In this document: one piece after another, positions 45,768 to 64,000 of the stretch
Layout: each line of letters begins with the position of its first letter
How positions within the stretch are numbered: the stretch's first letter is position 1
Source of the DNA: an uncultured Gemmatimonadaceae bacterium
GTDB taxonomy: Bacteria; Gemmatimonadota; Gemmatimonadetes; Gemmatimonadales; Gemmatimonadaceae
Length of the DNA stretch: 64,000 nucleotides
NCBI GenBank assembly: GCA_963740355.1
Contig: CAVUDW010000003.1
Coordinates: 320,001-384,000 of the forward strand
Reading direction: 5' to 3'
Notes under the pieces: generated by a model
Databases searched by the model: none
Seen by the model: the letters and a program-made list of their open reading frames with translations, nothing else
Told to the model about the DNA's origin: nothing
Translations under genes and position numbers: made by a program

Positions 45768-45815
45768 GTGCCGCGAGCGAAAAACGGCAACCTGTCCATT
45801 GCCGTTCTGCGCCCG

Positions 45816-46448: not shown

Positions 46449-47143
46449 GTAGCCGGTTGCATGATGAAGTATCCCGCCAGCTGGAATCCGACCAGCACGA
46501 ATCCAGCGGTCATGATGGCGACGTTCGCGCCGTAGGCGAGGGGGCGAAAGCTGGAGGTGCGCCGCCAGTGATTCATCGCGATCAGGATCGCGCTCAACGC
46601 CAGCACTTGTCCGATCTCCACGCCGACGTTGAAGGCGACGAGGTTCGGGACGAGTCCATCCTTGGCCATGTTGAAGTCGAGGATCTTGGTGGCCAGGCCG
46701 AAGCCATGGAAGAAGCCGAAGATCAGCGTTGCCGCTCGCGCGTCAGGGCTGACGCCGAACCAGGTCTTGAACGCGCCGAGATTCTCGAGCGCCTTGTAGA
46801 CCACCGACAGCCCGATGACGGCATCGACCAGGTACGCGTTCACCGTGACGTGCAGCAATACGCCAAGCAGCAGCGTCGTGGAATGACCGATGGCGAAGAG
46901 CGTCACGTAGAGCGCGACGTCCTTCAATCGGTACAGGTAGAAGATCACGCCAAGCAGGAACAGCAGGTGGTCGTAGCCCGTGACCATGTGCTTGGCGCCG
47001 AGATAGGCGAACGGGATCAGCAGCACACCGCTGCTCTGCTGAATGAAGCCCTTGTCGCCGGCGGCGACCCCATGCGCCATCAAGCGTGGCGCAAGCCCCG
47101 CCAGCATGACCAGCGCGAGCACCAGCCGTTGGACAAGGCGCAC
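46445..47143 (-). CDS. HupE/UreJ family metal transporter
   Basis: GAKHMVTGYDHLLF, FAIGHSTTL, FGFFHGFG, FNVGVEIGQ. Confidence 0.92.
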   Translation of the reverse strand: MRLVQRLVLALVMLAGLAPRLMAHGVAAGDKGFIQQSSGVLLIPFAYLGAKHMVTGYDHLLFLLGVIFYLYRLKDVALYVTLFAIGHSTTLLLGVLLHVTVNAYLVDAVIGLSVVYKALENLGAFKTWFGVSPDARAATLIFGFFHGFGLATKILDFNMAKDGLVPNLVAFNVGVEIGQVLALSAILIAMNHWRRTSSFRPLAYGANVAIMTAGFVLVGFQLAGYFIMQPAT

Positions 47144-47144
47144 G

Positions 47145-47963
47145 TCACTTCACCGCGAACGTGAGCGAGCCCCACTTCGACGCGTGATTCGCTTCTGGAT
47201 CGTTCGCGATCCGCGTCATCGAGATGAACTTGATGAAGTACGTCCCTGTGCGATCGAGCGGAATGCGAATCAGGCCCGCGGCGTCGGAGCGGATGTTGCG
47301 CTGCGCCACGCGGCCGTTCGACGACGACAAGCCGCCATACTGCACGAACTGATTCGCAACCGGCTTGCCATCCACCAGCACACGCACCGACAGCGTCGCG
47401 CCGACCTTCAGGGCGTAGGGATTTTCCACCGGCACCAACTCGGCCGGATAGCCCAGGACGGTGTTGAAGGCAGCGCTTGGCGTTGCACCGACCTGCACCA
47501 GCGCCTTCACGTGCTTCTGGTAGCGTTCCTTCGACCGTTCCTCGAGGCGATTCTGCGCGCGCCGTGCGGCGAGTTCGTCCGGAATGCCATCCGAGCGCAG
47601 GTAGGCATTGAAATCCTTGCCGCTCATCTCGAGCACGCGCGGCTTGGTCGACACCCCGACGACATACGTGCCAGCCGCGCCAGTGCGCAGCGGGAACACG
47701 CTCGTGTCGCCCGCTGCATTCCACTGTGCCACATCGACCTTGGCACGGCCCGCTGGTGACACCACTGCAATGTCAGCGAGGCGATCAGGCGTGATCGAGT
47801 TCTCGGAGAGAATGAAGGTGCCGTTGAACAGCTTCACGTTCACTGTCGTGTTCGGGGCCACGAAGAACTGTTCGAGGCGCAGGAACATGTCGTGCGCGAA
47901 GAGCGGCGTGGCCACGAAGGTGAGGGCCACGAGGATCGACGCGCGTCGGGAGGAGGGTCGCAT
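47145..47963 (-). CDS. DUF4198 family periplasmic metal-binding protein
   Basis: Signal peptide exposing an N-terminal His (FA-HDMFL), FNAYLRSDG, ELVPVENPY, SDAAG. Confidence 0.88.
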   Translation of the reverse strand: MRPSSRRASILVALTFVATPLFAHDMFLRLEQFFVAPNTTVNVKLFNGTFILSENSITPDRLADIAVVSPAGRAKVDVAQWNAAGDTSVFPLRTGAAGTYVVGVSTKPRVLEMSGKDFNAYLRSDGIPDELAARRAQNRLEERSKERYQKHVKALVQVGATPSAAFNTVLGYPAELVPVENPYALKVGATLSVRVLVDGKPVANQFVQYGGLSSSNGRVAQRNIRSDAAGLIRIPLDRTGTYFIKFISMTRIANDPEANHASKWGSLTFAVK

Positions 47964-48161
47964 GTGACAAGTCGGGTGGGGAGAATCGGCGACAGAGGCA
48001 TCACGAACTGGCACGACGTCGACGGCGCGAGCCATCGGGTCGCCTACAACAGACTCTTCCGTATCGGGTGCGCCGATCCGCGCCACTCGGTCGCGGTCGT
48101 CGCCCTCACGGCCTGCAATCAATTGTACCTTTCGCGCCGACGATACCACCTGAGGCTGCCA

Positions 48162-48776
48162 ATGAACCGGAAGTTGCACTGGGAGACGGTGTACGAAACC
48201 AAGGCATCGTCAGACGTCAGCTGGTTTCAGGCAGTCCCGACGCGCTCCCTCGAGCTGATTGCCGCAACCGGGACCACACCGAGCACTGCGATCATCGACA
48301 TCGGTGGCGGCGACTCTTCCCTGGTCGACGCCTTGCTGCAGCTTGGCCACCAACGGGTGACGGTCCTCGATCTCTCCCTTGCGGCGCTCGAGCGTGCACA
48401 GCTGCGACTCGGTGCTCGGGCGGCAGACGTGACCTGGATCGAGGCCGACATCACTCAGGCCGAGCTCCCCGCCGCATTCTACGACGTCTGGCATGACCGC
48501 GCGGTGTTTCACTTTCTGACGGCAGCGGAGGACCGGCAGCGCTACGTCCAGACGGCCGCCGAGGCGATTCGCCCGGGCGGCACGATGATCATCGGGACCT
48601 TCGCGCTGGATGGACCGCTGCGCTGCAGTGGCCTCGAGGTGGCCCGGTACGACCCTGAGACGCTCGCGGCCGAGTTTGCGCCCGCCTTCGATCTCGCCCG
48701 TGGGTTTGCCGATGTGCACACGACACCGTGGGGCGCGGAGCAGCGGTTCACGTTTGTGGTGCTGGTGCGCCGATAG
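48162..48776 (+). CDS. Class I SAM-dependent methyltransferase
   Basis: HWETVY...VSWFQ, IIDIGGG, WHDRAVFHFL, GPLRCSGL. Confidence 0.92.
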   Translation: MNRKLHWETVYETKASSDVSWFQAVPTRSLELIAATGTTPSTAIIDIGGGDSSLVDALLQLGHQRVTVLDLSLAALERAQLRLGARAADVTWIEADITQAELPAAFYDVWHDRAVFHFLTAAEDRQRYVQTAAEAIRPGGTMIIGTFALDGPLRCSGLEVARYDPETLAAEFAPAFDLARGFADVHTTPWGAEQRFTFVVLVRR

Positions 48777-48811
48777 CGCCGCCGCCGCCCATGTCGTCGG
48801 CGCGACATCCG

Positions 48812-49006
48812 GAAATCCGGTGACAGTGCACGATTTCGAAATCCGGTGACAGTGCACGGTTTAACCGGACAAAAACCGGTGACAGTGCACAGTTTCGAAA
48901 TCCGGTGACAGTGCACGGTTTCGAAATCCGGTGACAGTGCACGGTTTCCCCGTTTTCGAATTGTGTGCACTGTCACCGGTTTGGGCGTCACCGGTTTGGG
49001 CACCGG
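48812..49006. repeat. Tandem array of the RAYT-associated repeat
   Basis: Core CCGGTGACAGTGCAC on + at 48817, 48843, 48876, 48902 and 48928 (26-bp unit). Inverted copy at 48965-48979, then truncated GTCACCGG and CACCGG remnants. Confidence 0.95.
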
Positions 49007-49027
49007 CGCCCATGCAGCTCCTTGCGG

Positions 49028-49585
49028 CTACACACGAAGCACTGCCGCCGCCCACTCCGTCGGTTCGACATCGGCCGCCAGCACCCGGTCGACGGCAACG
49101 ATCACGCGGTCCTGCTGCAGGCGAAGTGCAAAACGATCGAGGTCGGGGGTGCGCCGACCGCTCGCGCGACGCCCATCCGTCATGAAGCGCACCTTGTGCT
49201 TGGGACAGTAGAAGCGATTCTCGGCTGGCGTCCACTCCAGCAGCCGCCCCTTGTGGGGGCACTCGAGCGAAAAGGCGAACAGCTGGCGGCTGGTCCGAAC
49301 CAGGCAGACGCGGTTCTCGACGTCCACCCAGACGCCGTCGACTGCCGGCAAGGCGTACGACCGCTCGATCTTGTCGACGGCAAGGGCAGTCACCTCTCCA
49401 ACGCCCGACGCGAATGCGCGCGTCGAGATCAGGCCGCCGGCAAGCAGCGCGGCCCCGATCGCTGTCGCTGCATCCCGCACGAAGCGGCGACGGTCAACAA
49501 CGGCCGGGCAGCCGGCATGGCTGGTATCGCTGGCATCGCTGGGCAATGCCGTCAGCGATCGCATGGTGTGCAGAGACTCCGACAT
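49028..49585 (-). CDS. Tat-exported Rieske 2Fe-2S protein
   Basis: DRRRFV signal, CPHKG and CPKH ligand motifs. Confidence 0.85.
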   Translation of the reverse strand: MSESLHTMRSLTALPSDASDTSHAGCPAVVDRRRFVRDAATAIGAALLAGGLISTRAFASGVGEVTALAVDKIERSYALPAVDGVWVDVENRVCLVRTSRQLFAFSLECPHKGRLLEWTPAENRFYCPKHKVRFMTDGRRASGRRTPDLDRFALRLQQDRVIVAVDRVLAADVEPTEWAAAVLRV

Positions 49586-49729
49586 GACGAATGCTCCTGA
49601 TGAATGTTGGGAGGTGCTGGCCGTACTCAGGCTCACATTCGGCTCCCCACACCCACGCCACCATCCGACATTCGTCGCGACTCAGTCGATCAGAACACTT
49701 GTGAGTCCTGACCGGCGGGCCGATCTCCC

Positions 49730-50281
49730 CTATTCGTCGACGCTTTGAGCGGGAGGCAGCATCAAACCTCCAAGAAAAAAGGCGGCCAGCTCGGCCCTCC
49801 CCTGCTGTCCGGACTTGCCGTAGACCGTCACCGCGTGCTGTCGGACGGTGCTCTCGCTTCGATTCGTCTGCGCGGCGATCTGCTTGTGACCGTGGCCCTT
49901 GAGCAGCAGAAGCGCGACTTCTCGCTCGCTGGGCGTCAGCCCCCAGTCGTCGAACTGTTCGTCGATCGCGCTGGCGAGGCCCGCGAGCGCCCGTTCGGCC
50001 CGACGTTGCCATGCCATCTGATCGGCCTGGGCCGCGGATAGCGAGCGTTTCGTTGCCTGAAGCGCCTCGGCTGTCGTTCGCCAGGCGCGCCAGAGCAGGA
50101 AGCCGACGCTGGCGCTGACCAGCATGATCCCCACCTCGACCAGCACATGGGCCGAGAGCCATTGGTCCGGCGCATCCAGATAGAGGTCGAACGCACCGGC
50201 CGCGACGACAGCCGCCAGGACGGCGAGCACCGCACGCCGCAACCACAGGTCGTCCTCGAACTCTTCACGCGGGAGTGTCAT
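49730..50281 (-). CDS. Membrane-anchored LuxR-type HTH regulator
   Basis: Two TM helices, a coiled coil, then WGLTPSEREVALLLLKG...IA...SESTVRQH. Confidence 0.88.
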   Translation of the reverse strand: MTLPREEFEDDLWLRRAVLAVLAAVVAAGAFDLYLDAPDQWLSAHVLVEVGIMLVSASVGFLLWRAWRTTAEALQATKRSLSAAQADQMAWQRRAERALAGLASAIDEQFDDWGLTPSEREVALLLLKGHGHKQIAAQTNRSESTVRQHAVTVYGKSGQQGRAELAAFFLGGLMLPPAQSVDE

Positions 50282-50461
50282 GAGGGTGAAACGTGCACGC
50301 TTCCGACCGCTGCGGTACCCCAGCACCAGGCGCTGGGGCTTCACATACGTGCAGAAAGCGGCAACCACGACAGATGTCGGATAGGCGGTAAGCCCCGCGG
50401 ATGCGAAGGTGTGGGTGTGCTTCGGGAGCGTCCCGAGAGCACTTCACCCCTGGAGGCATTC

Positions 50462-51022
50462 ATGAACGGCTCATTTGCGGCACTACTGCCCACGCCGCTG
50501 CACCCTGCCATCGTGCATCTCCCGATGGCCCTCGCAGTCCTCGTCCCGATCTTCGCCGTGGCCGCACTGGTGGCGGTTCGGAGGGGGGCGCGACCGATTC
50601 GTGCGTGGAGCATTACCGTGGCGATGTTTGCGGCGCTCACGCTGAGCAGTTGGGTCTCCGTGGAAACCGGCGAAGATCAGGAAGACCGGGTCGAGTCGAC
50701 GGTTCCGCGCGCCGCATTCCATGCGCATGAGGACGCTGCCTCACTCTTCCTCTGGATGTCGGCTGGCGTGCTAGGCATCGCCGGCATCGGGTTGTTGGCA
50801 TCACGGGCTGGATCGACGGCGAGGTGGGTGGCGACTGCTGGATCAGCCGCACTGCTCGTGGCAGGGTACCGCGTTGGGCATACGGGCGGCGCGATGGTTT
50901 ACACCTACGGTGCGGCGAGCGCCTACACTGACAGCGCGGCGGTGGCGGCTGGCAACGCCGCCACGACGTCTTCTGGACGTGCGCGTGCGAGTGGCGACGC
51001 CGACGACGACGACAATCGGTAG
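50462..51022 (+). CDS. DUF2231-like His-rich membrane protein
   Basis: LHPAIVHLP, HAHE, GHTGGAMVY.YG. Confidence 0.78.
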   Translation: MNGSFAALLPTPLHPAIVHLPMALAVLVPIFAVAALVAVRRGARPIRAWSITVAMFAALTLSSWVSVETGEDQEDRVESTVPRAAFHAHEDAASLFLWMSAGVLGIAGIGLLASRAGSTARWVATAGSAALLVAGYRVGHTGGAMVYTYGAASAYTDSAAVAAGNAATTSSGRARASGDADDDDNR

Positions 51023-51200
51023 CGAGCGGCTCGAGCGGCTCGAGCGAGGTACCGTCACGCGCTCATGAAATATCGTGGATGTTTCAACTGTCGAGGTGCC
51101 GCGAGCACGCAACATGCACTGACGATTCATCGCTGCCCTGTCGCTGCGTCACCGTGTCGCGCGCTGACGGGCAGCCTGGATCACGATCAACGGAGGTTTC

Positions 51201-51716
51201 ATGCACATGACTTCATGGCGCACACTGCAGGCATCGGCACTCATCTTGGCTGTCGGCTCGCTCGCTGCCTGCGCTGGCAAGACTGCGGAGAAGGCCAGCG
51301 ACTCTGCCGCGACTGCGGCGCCGGTCACGGCTGAGCCATCGGCGGCCGCATCGAAGATGGAGTGGACGACGACGCTGGAGCCGCGAGGCGGTACGAATGT
51401 GCGCGGCACTGCGTCAGTCGCGGCAGGGGCGACCTCCGGCACTACGACGGCGGCGGTGTCCATCACTGGCGCGCCGAAGGGTGGGACGCACCCGTGGCAC
51501 GTGCATGTCGGGACATGCGCCGCCAGCGGGGCAATCGTCGGAGCGGCTGACGCCTACACACCGCTGAAGGCTGACGACAATGGCGCGGCCAATTCCAGTG
51601 CTACGCTCAATGTCGCGACGCCGACCACCGGCGAGTATCACGTGAACGTGCACCTGTCACCGACCGAGATGGGTACCATCGTGTCGTGCGGCGACCTGAA
51701 GATGGCTGGGATGTAA
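51201..51716 (+). CDS. Cu/Zn-SOD-like fold lipoprotein
   Basis: Lipobox LAA-C, HPWHVHVGTC, HVNVH, SCGDL. Confidence 0.7.
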   Translation: MHMTSWRTLQASALILAVGSLAACAGKTAEKASDSAATAAPVTAEPSAAASKMEWTTTLEPRGGTNVRGTASVAAGATSGTTTAAVSITGAPKGGTHPWHVHVGTCAASGAIVGAADAYTPLKADDNGAANSSATLNVATPTTGEYHVNVHLSPTEMGTIVSCGDLKMAGM

Positions 51717-51741
51717 GCACCGGCTACGAGGCTGAACGTGC

Positions 51742-51782
51742 GGGGTCGGTGCCTTATGTTTGGGGCACCGGCCCCTTTGTTT
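51742..51782 (+). terminator. Intrinsic terminator
   Basis: GGGGTCGGTGCC/GGCACCGGCCCC stem followed by TTTGTTT. Confidence 0.8.
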
Positions 51783-51929
51783 GACCCGCGCCAACGAGGG
51801 GTGGCTCTTCCAGGAACGCTCGCCCGCACCGTCGGGCGGTTGTCCCTGGCCCACATCGCATCCCTGCGCGCCGACATGGCACCTCAGGTCACGCCTTTCA
51901 TCACAACGACGGCTGTGCGTGACGACGGC

Positions 51930-52667
51930 ATGTCGCTGCGCACCAGCTACGATGAATTTCGCGCGCGCGAGATCGATTTTTACAAGGAAATCATTCCGCA
52001 TCAGCAACTGATGCGCCTCGCCGACAGCGCGCTCCAGAGCATGGAGGCGCGGGGCGAGCTCATGCTCGGCGATGTGATGCTGAAATACGAAGTCGACGAC
52101 ATCGTCGCCGCTCGCCTTCGCCTGCCCTCCTTCCGCGCCTGGACACGCCGTCAGTCAGGCGGGGGCGGTGTGCTCCGCCCCTGGTCAGACCGCGCCGACC
52201 AACTGGCTCTCGAACTACCCACTGTTGCATCGAGTGCGGTCGTCCTGCTGCTGCAGCCACGCTCCGCAGATCTCTGGCAGGCCCTGAGCGGACATCGGCA
52301 TCATACGCTGGTCGTGGAACCAGACGACGAGCGTCGAGCGCGGCTGCTGGATGACGCCCACCGCGTCGACGGCGGTGAATACGTGACGGCCCTCCCCGCC
52401 TACGACGCGATCGATCCCGAGACGCTGTTTTCCTCGGTCTGCTATTCGCCGGCCGCCTGCGCCGATCTTGCAGACTGGGAAGCCGAGGAGCTGATCGAGT
52501 CGCTCAAGCAGCGGACGGTGCGGGGTGGCTGGCATGTGGTGGATGGCCTTTTGCGCGACCGCGCCTCGGTCCCACGCTCGATGCTCAAGCGGAGTTATGC
52601 CACCTGGGTGAAGCAAAAGCGGCGCGGCGCCGGCGACAGCACCTTCGTCGCAGCGCACTCAGGCTGA
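51930..52667 (+). CDS. Hypothetical protein, possible degenerate methyltransferase-like C-terminal domain
   Basis: Open frame. N-terminal helical domain ending RLRLPSFRAW, C-terminal LKQRTVRGGWHVV. Start could be 51876. Confidence 0.65.
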   Translation: MSLRTSYDEFRAREIDFYKEIIPHQQLMRLADSALQSMEARGELMLGDVMLKYEVDDIVAARLRLPSFRAWTRRQSGGGGVLRPWSDRADQLALELPTVASSAVVLLLQPRSADLWQALSGHRHHTLVVEPDDERRARLLDDAHRVDGGEYVTALPAYDAIDPETLFSSVCYSPAACADLADWEAEELIESLKQRTVRGGWHVVDGLLRDRASVPRSMLKRSYATWVKQKRRGAGDSTFVAAHSG

Positions 52668-52712
52668 TCGGAACACACCGCCATGCGCTACCACCGGCGG
52701 GACGCCATCAAT

Positions 52713-52755
52713 CCGGTGACAGTGCACTCATTTCCGAAATCCGGTGACAGTGCAC
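52713..52755 (+). repeat. Two direct copies of the RAYT-associated repeat
   Basis: Core at 52713-52727 and 52741-52755. Confidence 0.95.
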
Positions 52756-52783
52756 TCAATGCAAAGCTGCTGCGCCGAGACGT

Positions 52784-53218
52784 CTATGTGCTGGCTGGTT
52801 CAGCGCGGATCAGCGTCCCGCGCAGCTCCGTACCCGGCGAGACAGTGTTGAAGACCGTGCCGTACTTCTGAACGTTTGCGTGCAGCAGGGCCAGCCGCTG
52901 CTCTGATTCGTCGGTGTCGACACGCAGCTCATAAGTGATCGACTCGAGGCGAGGCGGAACGTCCTGACGTACCGCAGTGATTGTGACCGAGACGCCTCGC
53001 AGCGCAAAGTGCAGCATCGGCGCGATGCGCTCGATACCCTTTAGCATGCACGCCGCCAGCGCAGCGAGCAGCAACTCGGCGGGATTGAACGCATCCATCC
53101 GGCCAGCGAGGTCGGTGTCGAGTGTCAGCGTCGCATTCTTGCAGGATGCCGTGCTGCCGTGAGCATCGTCACGATGCGCGGAGACGCGGTACTCCAGTGG
53201 CGGCTTTGCATCTGTCAT
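52784..53218 (-). CDS. OsmC family protein
   Basis: FNPAELLLAALAAC, KYGTVFNTV. Confidence 0.88.
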   Translation of the reverse strand: MTDAKPPLEYRVSAHRDDAHGSTASCKNATLTLDTDLAGRMDAFNPAELLLAALAACMLKGIERIAPMLHFALRGVSVTITAVRQDVPPRLESITYELRVDTDESEQRLALLHANVQKYGTVFNTVSPGTELRGTLIRAEPAST

Positions 53219-53286
53219 GCGCGAGTTCCTCCCGAGGCGGTGGACGTGATCGAAAGATAGCCTCTGAGCACCGTCCCCGACCCAAT

Positions 53287-53301
53287 CCGGTGACAGTGCA
53301 C
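53287..53301 (+). repeat. Single RAYT-associated repeat
   Basis: Exact core CCGGTGACAGTGCAC. Confidence 0.93.
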
Positions 53302-53405
53302 ACAATGGCTATCCACCGCGCCGCGGAGTGGATTCAGGCGTACCCGGCCGGCTGGCCGCTCCCCGCCACTCTGCACCCGAATTCACGCGCGCTCCGTCAG
53401 CCGAA

Positions 53406-53906
53406 TCAGTCGACAGCCACCCCGTGGATGCCGACATGGGCAACGACACCCTTGAGCGTCGCGAGCAGCTGCGCTCGAGCCTCCGCATCGAGGTGCCCGA
53501 ATGCCTGGTCATCGTTGTCGTCGGCGAGCGCGGCGAGTATCGGTACGAGACGTCTGCCCGAGGCCCGCAGCACGATCAGCTGCGCGCGACCGTCCTCCGG
53601 ATCACTGCGGACCGACACCAGTTCCTTGGCGAACAGGCGATCGATGAGCTTCGATATCGCGCCGCGCGTCAGCCCAAGCCTTGCCGCCAGCTCACTCGGC
53701 TTGATGCCATCGCCGTCGAACAAGGCGCGCAACACGACCCACTCCGCGACCGTCACGCCCTGCTGCTCGACCTTCGTCTTGAAGGCGTGCGAGGCATGGT
53801 TCGAGACGACCCTCAGCCAGTAGCCGAGATGTGATTCGAGCGCGCTGACCCCATTTCGGTCCGGCGTCCGCTGGATGGGGCCGGCCTCGCGAACCGCCGC
53901 GAGCAC
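53406..53906 (-). CDS. MarR family regulator
   Basis: HLGYWLR, GVTVAEWVVL, PSELAARLGLTRGAISKLIDRL, DGRAQ. Start uncertain (53906 or 53933). Confidence 0.88.
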   Translation of the reverse strand: MLAAVREAGPIQRTPDRNGVSALESHLGYWLRVVSNHASHAFKTKVEQQGVTVAEWVVLRALFDGDGIKPSELAARLGLTRGAISKLIDRLFAKELVSVRSDPEDGRAQLIVLRASGRRLVPILAALADDNDDQAFGHLDAEARAQLLATLKGVVAHVGIHGVAVD

Positions 53907-53910
53907 CGAG

Positions 53911-54312
53911 CTATTGCGGGAAATGTTCGACATGTGTTTCCGCAGTCCGACCAAAGTAGACGACGCGTTTCCCAAGGAACGAGACCATGTACCCCGCACA
54001 CCCTGCCGCCCGCACCTTCGTGTTGAATCCCGCATAGGAGTAGCCGGGTGCGTTGGTTTGCGCCTCACGCACCGCCTCCTGGATCGCAGTGACGTCGAAG
54101 GTGGCGGCGATCGGTCTCGCCGGTGTCGGCATCGCCAGTTGGACGCTGTCGCCGCTCGCACTGAAGTACGTGGCGGTCCCGCGACGATAGTCCACGTCAT
54201 ACCCCTCGAAGCCGGCGCTGATTAGCGTGCCGACGATCGCAGGAAAGGTCATCGGGCCGCCGTAGGCCGCATCGAGGCACCTCTGCGCGACCGCGGTCAG
54301 ATCCTCGGGCAT
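53911..54312 (-). CDS. DUF1398 family protein
   Basis: TFPAIVGTL...GFEGYDVDY, AGCAGYMVS...RVVYFG. RBS GGAGG. Confidence 0.8.
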   Translation of the reverse strand: MPEDLTAVAQRCLDAAYGGPMTFPAIVGTLISAGFEGYDVDYRRGTATYFSASGDSVQLAMPTPARPIAATFDVTAIQEAVREAQTNAPGYSYAGFNTKVRAAGCAGYMVSFLGKRVVYFGRTAETHVEHFPQ

Positions 54313-54409
54313 CTCAGCTCGTCCTCCCCAGTGTGTGACTATTCGCGTTTCGAACCGACAACCCAAATATAGTTGCCTAGTCACTCATGTGAAGGCCTTG
54401 TCGTTGAAA

Positions 54410-55275
54410 TCCGGTGACAGTGCACTCATTGCGTAATTCGGTGACACAACCCGGTGACAGTGCACTCATTCGCCGACCGGCGCGCGAAGCGGCCTGCGCC
54501 CCGGCCTCCCGGGCCGCAAGCGACGCCTCGTCTGCGACTCCAACTGCGCCACGAACTCGGCCGACCCCGCCGGCCGACCGATCGTTTCACCGGCGCGGAT
54601 CCGTCGCAGGCGATCCTCATCGCCTGCCTCGCCCAGGTACGCCCGCATGTCGTCAATTCGCGCACGCATCAGATCGGGCTCCGTAAGGCCGTCGCCTGTG
54701 TGCGCCAGATAGGCGCGGGCGCTCGACCATCGCCACGCCAATGCCGTCCGTACGAGATTCGCGCGCACGGGATTGAGCAGGACGTACCGCAGCGCCTCGT
54801 AGAGATGCGGATCATCCATCGGTACCGACCCGTAACGCCCCTGCCAGAAGTGTCCCGTGACACCTCGGCTGCTGTTGAGGCAGCCGGCGTACGTGCGATG
54901 CACGGCGGACAGTGTGCGCCGCAACCCATCCTCGCACGCAGGCACGAGGATCAGGTGCGCGTGATTGGGCATGAGGCAATACGCGAGGCAGCGCACACGC
55001 GCCTCGGAACACGCCTCGCAGAGGAGGCGCAGGTACAGCGCGTAGTCTCCCGCTGAGAAGAACACCTGCTGCCGCCCATTGCCACGTTGCGTGACGTGAT
55101 GGGCGACACCGGGGATGACGAGGCGGGCAAGGCGAGCCATATGACGTATGGTGTGGGCACGAAACGCCGCCTTGCGGCAGCACGTGGCACCATCCTAAGA
55201 CGACTCGCCGCCCGCGACCTACCCAATTCTGTGCACTGTCACCGGTTTACACGCAATGAGTGCACTGTCACCGGA
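54410..55275. mobile_element. REPtron-like unit: Y1 transposase flanked by doubled inverted repeats
   Basis: Perfect 25-bp inverted pair TCCGGTGACAGTGCACTCATTGCGT at 54410-54434 and 55251-55275, plus inner cores at 54451-54465 and 55231-55245. Confidence 0.85.
54466..55140 (-). CDS. REP-associated tyrosine transposase (RAYT, Y1 HUH family)
   Basis: MARLAR, HHVTQRGN, AYCLMPNHAHL (HUH), WQGRY, LRYVLLNPVRA (catalytic Tyr), WRWSS. Confidence 0.93.
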   Translation of the reverse strand: MARLARLVIPGVAHHVTQRGNGRQQVFFSAGDYALYLRLLCEACSEARVRCLAYCLMPNHAHLILVPACEDGLRRTLSAVHRTYAGCLNSSRGVTGHFWQGRYGSVPMDDPHLYEALRYVLLNPVRANLVRTALAWRWSSARAYLAHTGDGLTEPDLMRARIDDMRAYLGEAGDEDRLRRIRAGETIGRPAGSAEFVAQLESQTRRRLRPGRPGRRPLRAPVGE

Positions 55276-55276
55276 A

Positions 55277-55762
55277 TTAGGGCTTCCGTGGCGCGGGGGC
55301 CGGTGCCGGCGCGCTGCCCGACGTGCGACCAGTGTTCGGCGAGGTGCCGGCGTTAGGCTTCGGCAACGGCTTGCCCGTGATCGGACGTTCGACACCCTGC
55401 ACCGTCCGTCGCTCGACTTCGAGATCGTCGAGATCATCGTCACCACCTGCGCGCGCCGTGCCGCCGCCGGTATTCGGCGAGACGCCGGCACCTGATTTCA
55501 CCGGCGGCCTGCCGGAGGTCGTCGGTGTGTTGACGCCCTGTACCGTGCGCTTCGTGCCAACATAGATGTCGTCCTCCGTCTGCGTGCCCGGGCCAGTCGT
55601 GGCGCGCGTGTTCACCGGCGGTTTGGTGGTCGGCGCATTCGGGGTGATGGTCTTGGGCGCCGTCTTGGGAGTCGGTGCCGGTGGCGCCGACTGCGCGAAG
55701 ACCGAGGCACTCGTCAGCATGACGGCGCAGACGACGGCGGACAGGCGACTGAAGCGTTGCAT
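55277..55762 (-). CDS. Secreted low-complexity protein with two internal repeats
   Basis: RBS GAGGAG, signal peptide ending VFA-Q, Pro/Thr/Gly-rich, RTVQGV...SPNTG twice. Confidence 0.75.
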   Translation of the reverse strand: MQRFSRLSAVVCAVMLTSASVFAQSAPPAPTPKTAPKTITPNAPTTKPPVNTRATTGPGTQTEDDIYVGTKRTVQGVNTPTTSGRPPVKSGAGVSPNTGGGTARAGGDDDLDDLEVERRTVQGVERPITGKPLPKPNAGTSPNTGRTSGSAPAPAPAPRKP

Positions 55763-55829
55763 TTGTCACTCCTCGAAGAATTTGGGACAGCGTTGAGACT
55801 GACAGATCGTGACGCGAGAGACTCGCGTC

Positions 55830-57227
55830 TTATCGCACACGAACCATGTGCAGCGTGATCCCCGCACCCGGTTCGTCCAGCACCAGGTTGAGCACCCGCC
55901 CGCCGCGGATGCCTTCGAACGACGCGTGAAACCGACGCGTCCGCCCCTGAAAATTGTTGCCGAACGCGATCGTCCAGTTGTCGACCACGGAGAAATTCCC
56001 CCGGTACGACACGTTCTGGCTGCGGATGCTGCCGACCATTCCAGTCGCACTGGCCACATCCATCTGATACGATGCGCCGGTGAACGACACGGTGGTGTTG
56101 CCACCGGCGTACATCATCCCTGCCGCACGGCCCGTCGCCGCATACACCATGCTCGTGCCCGAAGCGAAATTGTCGCTCCACGTACCGACGAAATCCCTCG
56201 GCGACACCGCGAACCTGTTGCGTCCGGCCATCGCGACCCATCGATCCCATGCCGTCTCGTTCTGCCGGTACGGCCCGAACTCTCGCTCGAACGTCGCCTT
56301 GTCTGGCGTCGCGAACTCCATCCAGTGTGTGTTCCTGTTCGGGTGACTGAACAGCACGACGTACATCCTGCGACCGGTCTCGATGTCGGTGGCCGTTCCC
56401 GCCGCGTAGTTGATCGGTTCGTAGCCGCCAGGGTTATTCCGCTCGACAACGAAGTCCGTCAGGTCACGGTACCGCGGCGCCACCAGCAGATTCCAGAACA
56501 GCGTCGTCTGCTCGGCAAGCACGGACATGTACGCCTTCTCTTCTTCGCGCGCGTAGTGCAGCACCACCCGCAGGTCTCCCTTCGTGACCTTCGTGTAGCT
56601 CTCCCCGATGACACTCGTCCACCCGTCGTCGAAATTCGTCGTGCTGAAGGCAAAGGCGCCCGGCGCAGTTTCCGCCGAGGCAGCGTTCTCCGTGACAGGC
56701 GCAGGCGTACTCGCCACCGCTGGCGGGGTTGCAGGAACGTTCGCGCCCGCTGCCGCTGGCTCGACCGCGGCAACGGCCGTCACCGGCCCCGATGGAGTCG
56801 CTGCTGCTGCGACCGTGACCGAGCGCTGCGAGATCTCGGCAGTGTAGAGCCAGCGATCCTTCTTGCCCGTCACGAACGACAGCAGCACGGACGATGCTCC
56901 GTCCTTGTCGGCGATGCCTGTCGTCGAGTCACGCGCACTCATCGTGACGGTCCAGCCGGAGCGCTGCACCGACGCGATGATCTCCGTCGTGGGTGGCGCG
57001 CTGAGTGAGAGCCGAAACACCTCGAGACGAGGACCGAGCTTCACTCCCTCACGCACCGCATCGAGCTTCAGAGACTCGCGGGCTGTTGCACGGTAGAGAA
57101 AGTTCGCGCTCACCGACGTGCCGTCGGGCAATCCCGTCCCGAGTAATGCCGACGTCACCGATGCGGCAGCCTGCGCGAAGCAGACGGCTGGGACCAGCAG
57201 CATTGCGAGGCCTGCACTGAACTTCAC
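55830..57227 (-). CDS. Secreted hypothetical two-domain protein
   Basis: GTG after AGGAG, signal peptide ending CFA-Q, Ala/Pro linker, then domain starting FAFSTTNFDDGW. Confidence 0.75.
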   Translation of the reverse strand: MKFSAGLAMLLVPAVCFAQAAASVTSALLGTGLPDGTSVSANFLYRATARESLKLDAVREGVKLGPRLEVFRLSLSAPPTTEIIASVQRSGWTVTMSARDSTTGIADKDGASSVLLSFVTGKKDRWLYTAEISQRSVTVAAAATPSGPVTAVAAVEPAAAGANVPATPPAVASTPAPVTENAASAETAPGAFAFSTTNFDDGWTSVIGESYTKVTKGDLRVVLHYAREEEKAYMSVLAEQTTLFWNLLVAPRYRDLTDFVVERNNPGGYEPINYAAGTATDIETGRRMYVVLFSHPNRNTHWMEFATPDKATFEREFGPYRQNETAWDRWVAMAGRNRFAVSPRDFVGTWSDNFASGTSMVYAATGRAAGMMYAGGNTTVSFTGASYQMDVASATGMVGSIRSQNVSYRGNFSVVDNWTIAFGNNFQGRTRRFHASFEGIRGGRVLNLVLDEPGAGITLHMVRVR

Positions 57228-57366
57228 GCCTTGACTCCTGCAAATGGTGATCGACCCGCATCCTCGGGCGTGCCACAAGATCTTCCAACATCTGGCGTAT
57301 TTCTGCGGGTTGCACGCACCCGCAACCGCGAGGTGCACTGGTAGCGTGCCCCGTTCAGTCATCGCT

Positions 57367-59748
57367 TCAGTAGGGCATCCACATGAATGCGTTCGCAAGT
57401 CCGGTGAAGGCCACGAACATTCCCGAAGCACGAGCGCCTGGGTCGTATTGATTGTTCGAACCGAACGCCACGTACGCACCGGTCCGCGAGATCGACACGC
57501 CGCTTGGTGAGTTGTTGGTCATCGTCGTCACGGGACGCGTTTCCCCGGTGATGTTGTTGTGCATGAAGATGTTGCCTTCAGGTGCGCCGAGGTTCTTCGC
57601 GGCGGACGCGAAGGCCACCCACTCGCCGCTCGAAGAAAGTGCGAGTCGGCCACCCTGCTCGACCGGCGAATCACCATTCGCCTCGGCGCCAGACGAGGTG
57701 ACACTGGCCCGCTGCACACGCCCGCTGCGCAGGTCCACGACGAACACATCCTGCAGTCCATTTGCATCGCCCGGCACGAGATTCGTCGCCGTGGTGGCAA
57801 ACGCGACGACGTTGCCATCGCCTGAGATCGCCGGCGCGACTTCGCGGCTCGCACTTTCGTTGCCCTGGTTACGCTCTCCACCCGCAGAGGTCCGACTGAC
57901 GCGTGAGAGGCCGCCCGTACTCTGATCGAAGACGAAGATGTCCCAGAGGCCATTCCTGTCACCGGTGACGAGGTCGGCGGAGAAACTCTGGAATGCGATC
58001 CGCGCGCCGTCCTCGGAGATGGACGGCTTCGAGCCACCCACTGCGCTGCCTTTGACACCGCGTGTCACGAGTGTCGTCTGCTTGGCTTGCAGGTCGCGCC
58101 GATAGACGTTCGGCGTGCTGACGCCAACCACGCCAGGCGTGAGATTGCTCGCGCTGCTGGTGAACGCGACCACGCGACCATCGCCCGATACCGTGGGTTC
58201 GTACGAGTCCGCGTTCCCCTCGACGCCGCCACTGCCGATGCTGATTCGGGTGACTGAAGTGGGGAGCAAGCCATTGGCGGCGGACCACACGAACACATCA
58301 CGCACCTTGTTGCCGTCACCCGGCACGAGGTTGGTGGCATGCGACTCGAAGGCCACTGTCAGGCCGTCAGCTGAAATCGACGGAGCGAAGCTGTCAGCGT
58401 CACCCGGTGTGCCATCGGCGGCGGCGCTGAGCAACTGCGTGTTGCCGGTGAGGCGGTCGCGCCAGTAGACCTGCCGCGCCTTCACCGGCCGATCGACCAG
58501 CCCACTCGCACCCGACATGAACGCCACGAATCGCCCCTCGCCGAAGCCGGCGAACGTGCTCCCTACCGGATCAGCAGCCCCGCCGACGACCGCATCCTTG
58601 CTCTCGTAGAACGTCGCACGCACGGTGCCGGCTGAATTCGTGCTGATGTGTTCGAACCGCGTCTCACAGCCCACGCGCAGACCGGGCTGTCCCTGCGGCA
58701 TGATGCCGATCGCACCTTGGTATGCCACACAGGTCACGTTGCTCCCGACTGGTGTCGCGGTGACGGTGTACGGCGTGCCATTTGCTCGCGGAGGCGCAAA
58801 GGTGAAGCTCTGCTCGTTGTAGCGATCAGTTCCACCGATGAAGACTGGCACCGTGACGGTCAGCGGCACGCCGCTGCCATTCACCGTCAAGGCCGCGCGT
58901 GCACCGACTGGTCCACGCAGGATGCCGCCGAGCGGGGAGGTGCCGCCCGCTCGCGGCCCGATGGTGACCGGGAGTCGCGTACGCGGCGGGATCAGCGTGC
59001 CTGAGCCACGGCCGCCAGTCGGCGCTGTTCCAGGCCCGGGTTCGGCGCCCGCTCCGACCACAGGCGGTGGCGCGGCGGCGGTGCAATTCGCTGTGACATA
59101 GATGTCTGAGTAGGCGCGGATGACGAGCGTGTCACCGACCGACTTCACCGCCCACGGCTCGGCAGCGGTGATGGGACAGGTTCGCCCCGCCGGGCTGCCG
59201 GCGCGCCAGACTCGCACCGTGCTGGCCGCGTCGATCATGCGAGTGAACCCGCCCTGGCGAGTTGGCGCGGTCACGTCGATCGGATCGGCGCCATCCATGC
59301 CGAAGCGGACAGTTTCGCCGTCGGCCGTGCCAAACGCGCGCACGATCACGCTAAACGTCGAGGGCACGTCCTTGCAGTCGGCGAATACGACCAGCGAGCT
59401 GCCAGTGGCGGTCCCGGTCTGGTTGGACAATCGGCAGGTGCGTGGGCCGGCGGTCTGCGTCACGGAATACGCCATCCCGCGCGGGACGGGCTGCGCGAAC
59501 GACTTCGGGTTTTCGTAAGTCAGCCCCGTCCACGACCCCGCGGCGTACACCACCTGCTGGCTGCCAAGTGTGAACGTGAACGCATCGTCCATCGAGCGGC
59601 CAGCGACGAGCACGGAGATCGTGGTGCCGGCGAGGGTCTGGGTTGCACCGTTCCGGGGCGGGAGGGTCTGCTGTGCCCTCAGGAGGAGGGGCATGGCGGC
59701 GACGAGCGTCGCCCCCGAACAGGCCAGCGCACGGAAGGATCGAGTCAT
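57367..59748 (-). CDS. Secreted TolB-like (PD40) beta-propeller protein with N-terminal beta-sandwich repeats
   Basis: Repeated PSISADG..VAF.S.ATNLVPGD.N...DVFV units. N-terminal Cys-paired repeats (YSVT...C...V...C). Confidence 0.85.
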   Translation of the reverse strand: MTRSFRALACSGATLVAAMPLLLRAQQTLPPRNGATQTLAGTTISVLVAGRSMDDAFTFTLGSQQVVYAAGSWTGLTYENPKSFAQPVPRGMAYSVTQTAGPRTCRLSNQTGTATGSSLVVFADCKDVPSTFSVIVRAFGTADGETVRFGMDGADPIDVTAPTRQGGFTRMIDAASTVRVWRAGSPAGRTCPITAAEPWAVKSVGDTLVIRAYSDIYVTANCTAAAPPPVVGAGAEPGPGTAPTGGRGSGTLIPPRTRLPVTIGPRAGGTSPLGGILRGPVGARAALTVNGSGVPLTVTVPVFIGGTDRYNEQSFTFAPPRANGTPYTVTATPVGSNVTCVAYQGAIGIMPQGQPGLRVGCETRFEHISTNSAGTVRATFYESKDAVVGGAADPVGSTFAGFGEGRFVAFMSGASGLVDRPVKARQVYWRDRLTGNTQLLSAAADGTPGDADSFAPSISADGLTVAFESHATNLVPGDGNKVRDVFVWSAANGLLPTSVTRISIGSGGVEGNADSYEPTVSGDGRVVAFTSSASNLTPGVVGVSTPNVYRRDLQAKQTTLVTRGVKGSAVGGSKPSISEDGARIAFQSFSADLVTGDRNGLWDIFVFDQSTGGLSRVSRTSAGGERNQGNESASREVAPAISGDGNVVAFATTATNLVPGDANGLQDVFVVDLRSGRVQRASVTSSGAEANGDSPVEQGGRLALSSSGEWVAFASAAKNLGAPEGNIFMHNNITGETRPVTTMTNNSPSGVSISRTGAYVAFGSNNQYDPGARASGMFVAFTGLANAFMWMPY

Positions 59749-59919
59749 GACGTGGTAGCGGAGATGGGAGACATCCACCAACGTCAGACGTCAGGGTCCG
59801 GCAAACATTCTCAGCCGTCGGGCGGGCGGCGTTCCGAGGCGTGCCGCGTCCCGGCGACGCGCAGGGCGATCGCACGTCGCCGGGCGGTTGCGAATGGCGA
59901 GATCCCGGACGTTGAATCA

Positions 59920-59934
59920 GTGCACTGTCACCGA
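59920..59934 (-). repeat. Single inverted RAYT-associated repeat (one mismatch)
   Basis: GTGCACTGTCACCGA. Confidence 0.88.
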
Positions 59935-59963
59935 ATTCCCGGACTTCCGGCAGTGAGATAGCG

Positions 59964-60632
59964 TCAGTTGCCGCGCGTGGGATTGACCGATCGCGTGGCG
60001 CACGGAACGACACTGTAGAAGAGACGATAGGTGCTCATCGACGCCGTCTCACGGTCGGCGTATGGCTCCGGCGGCCAGGGCACGACGTAGTTCGAAGCGG
60101 CGGCGAGATCCACGACAGAGCTCACCTGAAATGTGCTCTTGGCCGTGGTCGCGCAGGCGCTTTCGAGCGGCGCGGCGCTCGAGGCGCGATCGACGGTCAG
60201 CGCGGCGAACGTCATCGTGCCCCCGTTGGCCACGCTGCCGCCAGCGGTGGGTGTGCCGTTGTCGATCGCAATGTTCGACTCGATCAGGACGCCGGATGAC
60301 GCGCCGTTCAATCGCAACGGCGCCATCTGCGCGATCGCCATACGATTCGCATTCCCGTTGCCACCGCCCACCACCAGCTTGTAGCCCGTCTGCATCGTGA
60401 CCGTGAAGCGGATGTTGCAACGCACCCGACCGCGATTGATCGGGATCGGGAACTGTCCCGCCGCCGCCCAATCCGCAGCGAGAAACCTGCCCGACGCATC
60501 CGCCGCCTGGCTGAACGAGGTGCCGGTACAGTCGCCGGACGCGCTGCCGGCGGTGATCGAGAGCGACTGCGCCGCAGCGACCGAGGGCACCGACGCGAAC
60601 AACAGGGCGAACATGACACCTGGACGGAACAC
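59964..60632 (-). CDS. Secreted hypothetical beta-rich protein
   Basis: GTG after GGAGG, signal peptide ending AAA-Q, four Cys. Confidence 0.7.
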   Translation of the reverse strand: MFRPGVMFALLFASVPSVAAAQSLSITAGSASGDCTGTSFSQAADASGRFLAADWAAAGQFPIPINRGRVRCNIRFTVTMQTGYKLVVGGGNGNANRMAIAQMAPLRLNGASSGVLIESNIAIDNGTPTAGGSVANGGTMTFAALTVDRASSAAPLESACATTAKSTFQVSSVVDLAAASNYVVPWPPEPYADRETASMSTYRLFYSVVPCATRSVNPTRGN

Positions 60633-60806
60633 GACGGCCTCCGATGGATTTCCGAGGGGGCACAGGCCGCGTTGGGGAAGCCAGGTCGCGCGCAGGTGCC
60701 GCTCTCGGGGACACAGGGAGGACTGGTGCACGGCAACTGGGCAACATGCCTTGCCAGGGCGATACTTCCCGACTCAACGGATGCCAGACAGCCCAATTCC
60801 GATGAC

Positions 60807-60904
60807 AAATCCGGTGACAGTGCACTCATTGCAGGCCAATGCCCGTGCGCCTTCGCCGCGCCGTGATCGTCCTGAGGGGATATCTGTGCACTGTCACCGG
60901 ATTT
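60807..60904. repeat. REPIN/MITE-like inverted doublet
   Basis: Perfect 19-bp arms AAATCCGGTGACAGTGCAC (60807-60825 and 60886-60904) around a 60-nt spacer. Confidence 0.9.
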
Positions 60905-60908
60905 ACTG

Positions 60909-62459
60909 ATGCCTGCCACATCCTCCCCTCTCCTCCGCTCGCTCGCCGCCGCACTGCTTCTCTCCGCGTGTGGGGGAGATCCCGCGCCGGCGCCGCTACG
61001 ACTCGCAGTGGACCCGGCATTCTGCGCACAGGTCCAGGCCCCTGCCCCGGCGCTGTCCACCGTCCTCGCACCGCTCGATTCGCTGATGCGCGTGCACACC
61101 GGCGTGCACTCGCTCGAGGAAGGTGACCAGTCGATGGTCGCGCGTGCCTGGCTGACCGCCGCGGCCGAGCGCAGCATCGACGTGCAGTACTTCATCTTCA
61201 CGGGCGACAACGTCGGCTTGATCGCGGTGGACTACCTGCTCCGTGCAGCCGACCGCGGAGTGCACGTTCGGTTGCTGGTGGACGACTTCATGCTCGAGGC
61301 GGATGCTCGGTCATTGCTGGCACTGGATGCCCACCCGAACCTCGAGATCCGTCTCTACAATCCGACGACGAACATCGGGAAGACGCTGCCGACGAAGCTC
61401 TTTTCGCTGGCCACCGATTTCCGCGGCTTCAACCAGCGGATGCACAACAAGACGTTCATCGTGGATGGACGAGTCGTGATCACCGGCGGACGCAATATCG
61501 CCGACGAATACTTCGACTACGACCACGAATACAACTTTCGTGACCGGGATGTCCTGCTGCTGGGTGGTGCCGCAGGCGATGTGCAGCGCTCGTTCGAGAC
61601 GTTCTGGTCGAGCGCACTGAGTGTCCCGGTGGCCTCGCTGGTGCGCGCTGATACTGCGCCGATGGACACGGCCGTCGCGTACCGCTACCTGCATGACTAC
61701 GCCTGCGATCCACATAACTTCTGGCCACAGGTGCGCGAACGCATTGCGGCGGCGCCGGCCACCTTCGACCGCCTGCGTGATTCGGGGGCGGTCGTATGGT
61801 CGGACAGCGTCAGCTTCGTGACGGACCTGCCCGGCAAGAACGCCGGGACCGATGGAATCGGCGGCGGAGGGCGAAGCACCGAGGCACTGATCCAGTTGGT
61901 GAAGGAGGCGCGTTCATCGGTGACCATCCAGTCGCCGTATCTGGTCACGACTGCGGTGAGCCAGCAGCTGTTCCGCGATGCCATTGCGCGCGGCGTGCGC
62001 GTGCGAATCCTCACCAACAGCCTCGCCTCGACCGACAATCTCGACGCCTTCAGCGGCTATCAGCGCGAGCGCGCAACGTTGCTTGCACTCGGCGTCGAGA
62101 TCTACGAGTTCAGGCCCGATGCGGCGGTGCGTCGCCGAATCATGACGGGCGCGCTGCAGACGACCCTCGACTACGCACCGATCTTCGGCCTGCATGCGAA
62201 GTCGATGGTGATCGACGACAGGATCGCGGTGATCGGCACCTTCAACCTCGATCCCCGGAGCGCGAACCTGAACACCGAGTGCCTGGCGGTGGTGCGCGAT
62301 GCGCAGGTGGCGAAGGATCTCGCGCGTGCGATGGCGGTGGACATGCAGCCGGAGAATGCCTGGCACACGACGGCCGCGTTCAATCCGGATGGGGAGGTCG
62401 CGCTGGGGAAGCGGCTGAAGGTCTGGCTGCGGGGGGCGGTGCCGAAGGCGGTGTTGTAG
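60909..62459 (+). CDS. Phospholipase D family (ClsC-like) lipoprotein
   Basis: Lipobox LSA-C, two HKD motifs HNKTFIVD and HAKSMVID, FNLDPRSANLNTE. Confidence 0.92.
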   Translation: MPATSSPLLRSLAAALLLSACGGDPAPAPLRLAVDPAFCAQVQAPAPALSTVLAPLDSLMRVHTGVHSLEEGDQSMVARAWLTAAAERSIDVQYFIFTGDNVGLIAVDYLLRAADRGVHVRLLVDDFMLEADARSLLALDAHPNLEIRLYNPTTNIGKTLPTKLFSLATDFRGFNQRMHNKTFIVDGRVVITGGRNIADEYFDYDHEYNFRDRDVLLLGGAAGDVQRSFETFWSSALSVPVASLVRADTAPMDTAVAYRYLHDYACDPHNFWPQVRERIAAAPATFDRLRDSGAVVWSDSVSFVTDLPGKNAGTDGIGGGGRSTEALIQLVKEARSSVTIQSPYLVTTAVSQQLFRDAIARGVRVRILTNSLASTDNLDAFSGYQRERATLLALGVEIYEFRPDAAVRRRIMTGALQTTLDYAPIFGLHAKSMVIDDRIAVIGTFNLDPRSANLNTECLAVVRDAQVAKDLARAMAVDMQPENAWHTTAAFNPDGEVALGKRLKVWLRGAVPKAVL

Positions 62460-62659
62460 AGCGCGTCACGGCGGCGTCATCTCGTAGTTCGACGGTGGCT
62501 CAGCGCCGAGCAGGTTGCGGACGAAGTAGTCACAGCGTGGCGGATCGCGTATCGAACGCTGATGACCCGCATCCGTCACGATCAGCAGGTCGAAGTCCCG
62601 GTTCGCCTTCTGCATGGCGTCGGCCGAGACGCAGCGTCTCAGCAAACCGCGCCTGACGG

Positions 62660-63391: not shown

Positions 63392-63443
63392 GATGCATTC
63401 CTCTCCGAAGTAGTTGAGACTCACATCAAACGACACGCCACCC

Positions 63444-63998: not shown

Positions 63999-64000
63999 CA

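Follow-up and report, generated by a model that had tools for sequence, protein, structure and literature searches.

The 64-kb stretch of DNA analysed here (the window) covers positions 320001-384000 of contig C3 in the assembly of a Gemmatimonadaceae bacterium (5.45 Mb, five contigs; genome code G000), and our subject is a family of short repeats that cluster within it around the gene for a Y1 transposase. A search of the window for the 15-mer CCGGTGACAGTGCAC, with up to two mismatches allowed, returned 16 matches, 15 of which were exact and one of which had a single mismatch (TCGG..., 59920-59934). All of them lie within 48817-60900, where they form seven intergenic clusters around the transposase gene. 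The chance expectation for this motif in the window is 0.36 copies (standard deviation 0.56), and none of 100 shuffled sequences reached 16. An earlier, sequence-only reading of this DNA had reported 16 copies in seven intergenic clusters, and our pattern search reproduced these along with their order and strands; forward and reverse copies of the 15-mer are denoted F and R, respectively. Genes were called with a codon-usage caller of our own, an earlier caller with a threshold on GC content at third codon positions having been dropped (56% coding only).

The transposase gene (54466..55140, minus strand) encodes a protein of 224 aa with matches to Pfam Y1_Tnp (E 9.4e-8, 32.7 bits, cut-off 23) and NCBIfam REP_Tyr_transpos, which indicate a Y1 HUH transposase of the RAYT/TIRYT type (RAYT: transposase associated with repetitive extragenic palindromic, or REP, sequences). 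In an alignment of seven sequences (the window protein, five orthologues and the genome's second Y1 protein) H60-A-H62 and Y119, the latter within RYVLLNPVRA, are invariant, and based on their role in the family H60, H62 and Y119 are expected to be catalytic. The family matches, the HAH motif and Tyr119 all support the earlier assignment of this gene to the HUH enzymes of RAYT type. On its left the transposase unit is bounded by terminal repeats in the form of an FF pair (54411..54465, plus strand) with a truncated half-copy between its members (~54436-54448), and the last F unit ends beside the transposase stop codon. The right terminal repeats, an RR pair (55231..55274, minus strand), are situated 91 nt upstream of the transposase start. 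The two inner flanks have the 23-nt sequence CCGGTGACAGTGCACTCATTGCG in common, in inverted orientation. The transposase loci of relatives are similarly arranged: six of seven have F to the left of the gene and R to its right, and the seventh has F only. The earlier reading was right in taking the repeats to be the cognate repeats of the transposase.

The leftmost cluster, FFFFFR (48817..48979, mixed orientation), lies between the methyltransferase and Rieske genes and consists of five direct units at a period of 26-33 nt plus one inverted unit. Its last F-R pair forms a hairpin (48921-48986, -19.3 kcal/mol, z -5.5; folding energies were compared with those of shuffled sequence and are reported as z), and truncated outer half-copies continue beyond the cluster from 48980 to ~49010. 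Closer to the transposase are an FF cluster (52713..52755, plus strand) between the convergent genes 51777-52667 (plus) and OsmC (minus), and a single F unit (53287..53301, plus strand) between OsmC and MarR. To the right of the transposase, the single R unit with the mismatch (59920..59934, minus strand) lies between the PD40 gene and a 255-aa gene, and an inverted FR pair with a 60-nt loop (60811..60900, mixed) occupies the divergent gap between gene 59964-60731 (minus) and PLD (plus). The fold of this last pair is stable (60804-60907, -31.1 kcal/mol, z -6.0). The region of the lone F unit (53280-53310, z +0.73) and the direct pair at 54411-54465 (z +0.8) are unfolded. A CRISPR-like reading of the five-unit array was rejected because its "spacers" are near-copies of one another. 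Rfam gave no match in 44000-64000 of the window at E up to 0.1, and a tRNA search of the window found no tRNA gene.

The sequence-only reading had noticed no further copies in the window. This is true of the window only: the genome has 105 exact copies, 90 of them located beyond its limits. The exact copies are divided between C2 (49) and C3 (56), with none on the three small contigs. At up to one mismatch there are 126 copies, compared with one in a reversed-genome control, and these constitute 51 clusters on both large contigs, 47 of which are intergenic and 44 of which are away from the locus. This is largely the genome-wide spread of an ordinary REP, a result that the sequence-only reading had itself named as refuting its proposal. 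The orientation of the units is unlinked to the replication strand (31 F and 28 R on C2; 38 F and 29 R on C3) and to the direction of adjacent genes. Cumulative GC skew climbs steadily over the length of C2 and declines over that of C3, and these two contigs therefore look like two replication arms of one chromosome; ~0.35 Mb separates the window from what is probably the terminus end of C3.

The conserved unit is ~25 nt long (consensus GAAATCCGGTGACAGTGCACTCATT), the 15-mer being its core. It lacks a GTAG head and is self-complementary only over the 8-nt stretch AGTGCACT, and a test for an imperfectly palindromic unit with a GT(A/G)G head was negative, with a single unit folding no better than shuffles (z +0.73). 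Across the family the single unit and direct pairs are unfolded (z +0.7, +0.8 and -0.8), and the inverted pairs are hairpins (z -5.5 to -15.9). The geometry of the clusters is strict: 31 of the 32 mixed-orientation clusters have the form F...FR...R, and triplets are FFR (12) or FRR (4), with RFR and FRF never seen. Sixteen of the 51 clusters are purely F or purely R. The FF-gene-RR arrangement at the transposase has the same geometry as the clusters in which F units precede R units, with the gene in the place of the loop. We also counted by eye ~19 truncated half-copies (AATCCGGTGACAG...) just outside full copies genome-wide, for which a longer pattern was used after an 8-mer seed proved too common in coding DNA (871 matches versus 301 in the control). 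Most half-copies end directly after GGTGACAG, and the next full unit starts 0-8 nt further on; these ends may represent a cut or template-switch point.

The placement and folding of the clusters bear on the possibility that the repeats are kept for a host function at the ends of transcription units, as terminators, mRNA stabilisers or protein binding sites, and are dense in this region since it is made up of many short independent units. Consistent with such a function are the intergenic position of almost all clusters, the location of 15 of the 47 intergenic clusters between convergent genes (compared with 384 of 2398 gaps genome-wide), the very stable hairpins formed by inverted doublets, and the roles of REPs in termination and mRNA stability reported in some of the literature. 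However, nine clusters are in divergent gaps, 16 of the 51 are pure F or pure R, direct arrays and single units do not fold, and a host function leaves the excess of repeats around the transposase gene unexplained. We consider it very unlikely that this is why the repeats are kept.

With seven clusters in 13 kb, the neighbourhood of the transposase is the densest 13-kb repeat patch of the genome, since only 2 of 10221 sliding 13-kb windows reach seven clusters and both are here. In this respect the earlier claim that the repeats are concentrated around the transposase was well founded. Repeats occupy 7 of the 12 local intergenic gaps of at least 40 nt, compared with 47 of 2294 genome-wide. The further claim that the repeats act locally did not hold up, based on the fact that 44 of the 51 clusters are away from the locus and that a larger patch, in which no transposase was found, is present on C2; only 16 of the 126 copies are near the transposase gene. 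This largest patch (C2 1.628-1.689 Mb; C2:1630355-1687238) holds 35 copies in 15 clusters, and 14 of its 34 gaps contain repeats; four further clusters lie at C2:1.966-1.973 Mb. Among the 51 proteins scanned in both C2 patches (46 in the larger) there was no Y1 transposase or integrase; those encoded there are of varied kinds and include kinases, PD40 proteins, cupins, regulators and hydrolases. A 6-nt tail is held in common by 43 of 464 pairs of copies that are 0.3-20 kb apart, versus 315 of 6728 distant pairs, a result reached in 18 of 1000 permutations. These data, together with the near-identity of some neighbouring doublets and their flanks, fit a short-range spread from existing copies, a process that would account for patches that have the gene as well as for those that lack it.

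The window repeats had also been described as a polarised scaffold. This is accurate in so far as 14 of the 16 units face the transposase gene and the inner flanks are inverted. We do not take a wider polarity as established. Units within one array are not independent. Beyond the inner flanks, the pure clusters (FF and F on the left, R on the right) all face the gene, but with three of three the result is not significant (p 0.125), and the two outermost clusters are of mixed orientation. In relatives, three of the five pure outer clusters within 20 kb of the transposase face it (G009 FF, a run of six R units in G009, and G010 R) and two face away (G009 RR and G014 FF). For homologues in other phyla, 28 of the extra copies within 3 kb face the gene and 19 face away.

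The genome has two Y1 loci whose proteins are 34% identical, each with its own repeat family and a gene that is single-copy for that family. The second gene (C2:1530310-1530978, in the locus C2:1530050-1531353) has its own repeat, GATCAAGGGGTCAGAGATCTTGATCGG with the core GGGGTCAG, arranged as FFFF-gene-RRR with a 71-nt period. This second family numbers 202 copies, which form 46 clusters distributed over both large contigs and are often in long one-way arrays of up to eight units. Single genes bracketed on both sides by clusters number eight in the first family and three in the second. At C2:1758335-1759850 and C3:2457276-2458215 one gene that does not encode a transposase (346 aa and 140 aa, respectively) is enclosed by arrays of the second family, purely F on one side and purely R on the other, an arrangement like that around the transposase. 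Both of these genes have signal-peptide-like starts.

The search for orthologues of the window transposase covered 19 other species of the genus and found them (59-79% identity) in roughly half; relatives were represented by one genome per species (those named here are among G004-G019), and all comparisons are between species, at ~70-89% DNA identity. The exact 15-mer is present in 80 copies in G009, in 40 copies in G010 and in five or fewer in any of the 22 remaining genomes searched for it, and at up to one mismatch G016 has 34 copies (10 exact), G019 33 and G017 7. In G016 there is no transposase orthologue at E up to 1e-10 alongside these 34 copies, and its repeat family may have lost its enzyme; G017 has only a distant type. 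Further afield, at least 576 related stretches occur in many phyla (one genome per species), the closest named being that of a Gemmatimonadaceae metagenome-assembled genome at 79%. Exact flanking inverted repeats of at least 12 nt, often with a GGGGACAG or GGTGACAG core, are present at 36 of 59 homologous loci from other phyla, these 59 being the loci with enough flank of the 77 listed.

We conclude that the window most probably contains part of a REP/RAYT system of the terminal-inverted-repeat type (TIRYT/TIRtron), that is, a genome-wide repeat family together with its transposase. The ~25-nt repeats would belong to a family served by the single-copy Y1/HUH transposase at 54466-55140, and this gene with its inward-facing flanking repeats would constitute the unit that is standard for systems of this kind. 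Short inverted doublets in other places would be miniature hairpin-forming derivatives, similar to REPINs (REP doublets that form hairpins), and the seven window clusters would be the local, densest part of the family. We expect that the enzyme makes new copies mostly near its own gene and near existing copies, and that copies persist in intergenic gaps where gene order is little constrained. The genes between the clusters are predicted to be ordinary chromosomal accessory genes, not cassettes.

Several observations weigh against this conclusion. The match of the transposase to REP_Tyr_transpos (60.7 bits, E 1.3e-16) is under the 80-bit equivalog cut-off of that model, no C-terminal helix-turn-helix (HTH) was found in the ~85-aa extension by Pfam at E up to 1 in seven members, and phmmer matched no solved structure at E up to 0.01. 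The window unit has neither the GTAG head nor the internal palindrome of the REPs of a REPtron, and its GGTGACAG core fits the TIRtron motif GGGGWSAS at only 7 of 8 positions. The largest C2 patch is 100 kb from any Y1 gene, and proximity to the gene therefore cannot explain all of the clumping. Similarly, the tails of the window copies differ from one another, so these are not recent copies of each other. Lastly, some genes bracketed by repeats have a different context in relatives, as described below, which a purely passive role of the repeats does not predict.

The sequence-only reading had assigned the genes between the clusters to discrete blocks. Pfam confirmed the Rieske, OsmC, MarR, PD40, PLD and methyltransferase labels; the DUF1398 label corresponds to a weak match (E 0.0018, 18.8 bits, cut-off 22), and "secreted" refers to signal-peptide-like N-termini judged by eye only. 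Block 1 (49028..52667, mixed strands) comprises the Rieske gene (minus), a GerE/LuxR-type HTH gene at 49730-50368 (minus) and two genes at 51201-51716 and 51777-52667 (both plus) for which no family match was found. Homologues of the Rieske gene and the 49730 gene are on other contigs in G004 and G014, with no repeat in the fetched stretch; in G010 this applies to the homologue of the 49730 gene only, again with no repeat in the fetched stretch, and a DNA search matched the Rieske region there as well. Block 2 (52784..53305, minus strand) is the OsmC-like gene (Pfam OsmC, E 3.2e-14), and block 3 (53406..54312, minus strand) comprises the MarR regulator (53406-53954) and the weakly DUF1398-like gene (53911-54312). 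Block 4 (55277..59781, minus strand) contains three genes with signal-peptide-like starts, for proteins of 161 aa, 465 aa and 804 aa, the last being the PD40 repeat protein; its homologues in G019 have another order and orientation. Block 5 (59964..60731, minus strand) is the 255-aa gene, which also has a signal-peptide-like N-terminus and whose homologue in G017, 85% identical, is 5 kb from PLD and not adjacent to it.

That eight consecutive genes (52784-60731) are all on the minus strand was borne out with the codon-usage caller. The minus strand of C3 carries 61% of the genes called there, runs of at least eight genes make up 52 of its 660 same-strand runs, and 29% of genes are in such runs; long same-strand runs are therefore common and the eight co-oriented genes unremarkable. 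None of the cargo genes has a second copy in the genome. GC content is flat at 62-68% and the base composition of the cargo is ordinary, so there is no sign that the cargo is foreign.

Comparison with relatives indicated that, as the sequence-only reading had supposed, the locus is structurally variable, with a gene content that differs between species. Contig C2 of G009 is collinear with C3 of G000, and the transposase is located between the same backbone blocks in both (up to C3:362977 and from C3:404043). Between these blocks everything but the transposase differs, with 37 kb in G000 and ~7-12 kb in G009. In G012 a homologue of the window gene 62660-63547 is 1.4 kb from the transposase, and in G010 FFFF and the transposase come immediately after a methyltransferase gene. 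Based on these changed neighbours, the transposase is located in a zone of fast gene turnover. In the rest of the variable zone (C3:384-404 kb) no recombinase was found among 18 proteins scanned, which are products of ordinary accessory genes. A paralogous copy of the methyltransferase gene (69% DNA identity) and of a three-gene DUF4198 block (77%) is present at C3:536618-541647; the originals flank the left end of the locus, and the choice of synteny anchors is complicated by these paralogues. A joint from 52765 to 55253, the sole joint in the short contigs of two public runs that cover part of the stretch, was read as a repeat artefact and not as a deletion: it is in one short contig at depth 2, has a 21-letter side inside a repeat unit, and has five other letters between its two sides.

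The turnover raises the possibility that the repeat clusters are passive recombination substrates, such that near-identical units of 15-25 nt in neighbouring gaps promote deletions, duplications and translocations, and gene order is shuffled with no gene moved by the transposase. The changed content between the same backbone blocks in G000 and G009 would be expected in this case, and a 20-kb sample of the large C2 patch is likewise non-syntenic in five relatives. Two cases involve individual genes. In G000 and G017 alike, a repeat is retained at the 3' end of the DUF1398-MarR pair although the contexts differ: in G017 (contig C171) an FR doublet lies 58 nt after MarR, and the homology does not extend past the ends of the genes. 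The second case is a 130-aa gene that in G000 and G014 is syntenic and free of repeats, but is bracketed by clusters in a new context in G009, beside the transposase, and in G010, in another repeat-dense stretch. Local duplications also span doublets together with their flanks. One pair of doublets 1.4 kb apart is 92% identical over 147 nt with flanks included, and at C2:1358653-1360473 two near-identical inverted doublets surround one gene with their flanks permuted (A-doublet-B and B-doublet-A, 91-97%).

These cases are correlations only, and the repeats may have settled in gaps that were already unconstrained. In the slot upstream of PLD, between the homologue of gene 44463-45767 and PLD, different genes are present in G016 and G017 with no repeats there. 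Moreover, with repeats in over half of the local gaps (7 of 12), coincidence with breakpoints is to be expected at about an even chance, and across species breakpoints are not placeable to the base. These cases link the repeats with rearranged contexts, cause and consequence not being separable from them, and the repeats may have a weaker link with turnover of gene order. We believe that passive recombination is unlikely to be the correct account of the system.

The sequence-only reading had proposed an integron-like capture platform or a composite element growing outward, in which the transposase would cut and rejoin DNA at the repeats so as to capture, excise or shuffle gene blocks, making the locus an HUH analogue of an integron or composite transposon. 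The densest repeat patch does surround the enzyme gene, most units in it face that gene, single genes are bracketed in both families (eight and three cases, two of the second family having a pure F array, the gene and a pure R array), and bracketed genes are in changed contexts in relatives. However, the proposal found no support overall: the family is genome-wide, with 90 of 105 exact copies outside the window, and the cargo is single-copy and of ordinary composition. The polarity past the inner flanks is not significant here and is 28 versus 19 in other phyla. Each boundary has one to six units in either orientation, unlike the one site per cassette of an integron, and no integrase-like gene was found among the 20 + 10 + 18 proteins scanned around the locus. 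The 130-aa genes of G009 and G010 are no closer to each other (76%) than to that of G000 (78% and 82%), which argues against one travelling cassette, and the slot upstream of PLD varies in G016 and G017 where there are no repeats. We judge capture of genes by the transposase to be highly improbable.

A broader possibility, which we consider quite unlikely, is that gene blocks bracketed by repeats are relocated, either by the transposase or through recombination at its repeats, with repeat-rich patches acting as engines of local turnover. In that event inward-facing arrays, which are present around both transposases and around two unrelated single genes in the second family, would mark units that can be cut out and rejoined as single-stranded DNA. 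Should repeat-bracketed genes prove to move, bacterial chromosomes would have a gene-shuffling route that is new. Irrespective of this, the locus clearly exemplifies a RAYT/TIRYT repeat system in a host that is not a proteobacterium. Its two families in a single genome, strict cluster geometry, truncated half-copies and clumped distribution also bear on how such repeats spread, which has been called poorly understood (Corneloup et al., 2021).

Four types of known system can be compared with the locus. An integron consists of IntI, attI and cassettes bounded by attC. The window resembles one in having short repeats between co-oriented genes beside an enzyme that breaks and rejoins DNA, but no IntI family was found among the 20, 10 and 18 proteins scanned (45.8-63.5 kb and the next 20 kb). 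In addition, the repeats are not confined to one array, boundaries have one to six units in both orientations, single units are unstructured and the cargo gives no sign of mobility. The absence of a second genomic copy of the cargo is also a difference from a composite transposon.

The excess of repeats near a transposase gene is already described for REP systems. Accumulation of REPs near rayt has been reported in four species, Thauera sp. MZ1T and three marine gammaproteobacteria, and in Thauera more than one third of REPs are near rayt, which the authors interpreted as new copies being preferentially made nearby (Nunvar, 2010, PMC2817692). Our locus shares this excess, but the copies close to the gene number only 16 of 126 and a larger patch is present elsewhere.

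The REPtron is another counterpart. According to the same study, a rayt gene always has a pair of inverted REPs at its flanks, in many cases immediately behind the stop codon (Nunvar, 2010, PMC2817692), and inverted doublets have been described as the replicating unit, with a higher-order cluster beside each RAYT (Bertels and Rainey, 2011, PMC3116915). Likewise, our genome has a single-copy Y1/HUH gene with inward-facing flanks, one of which abuts the stop codon, and more than 100 extragenic copies that are mostly in inverted doublets or clusters, with a higher-order cluster beside the gene. Apart from the head and palindrome noted above, the differences are that here only inverted doublets fold, that direct arrays with a period of 26-33 nt are common, and that the host is a member of the Gemmatimonadaceae, not a proteobacterium.

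TIRYTs, or TIRtrons, are described as RAYT-like genes with long terminal inverted repeats that have the motif GGGGWSAS, some families of which are moderately abundant and occur as dimers or clusters (Di Nocera, 2013, PMC3733652). Most TIRYTs are assigned to subclass 2.1, with a C-terminal HTH (Quentin, 2018, PMC6006769), and the lack of such an HTH by Pfam in seven members is a difference from that subclass. Two families of 126 and 202 copies are present here in one genome. The core of the second family, GGGGTCAG, and the GGGGACAG flanks of many homologues in other phyla fit GGGGWSAS exactly. Because the unit is non-palindromic, its core agrees with seven of the eight motif positions, and its copies occur as singles, dimers and groups, as do those of TIRtrons, the TIRtron description is the best fit for the element.

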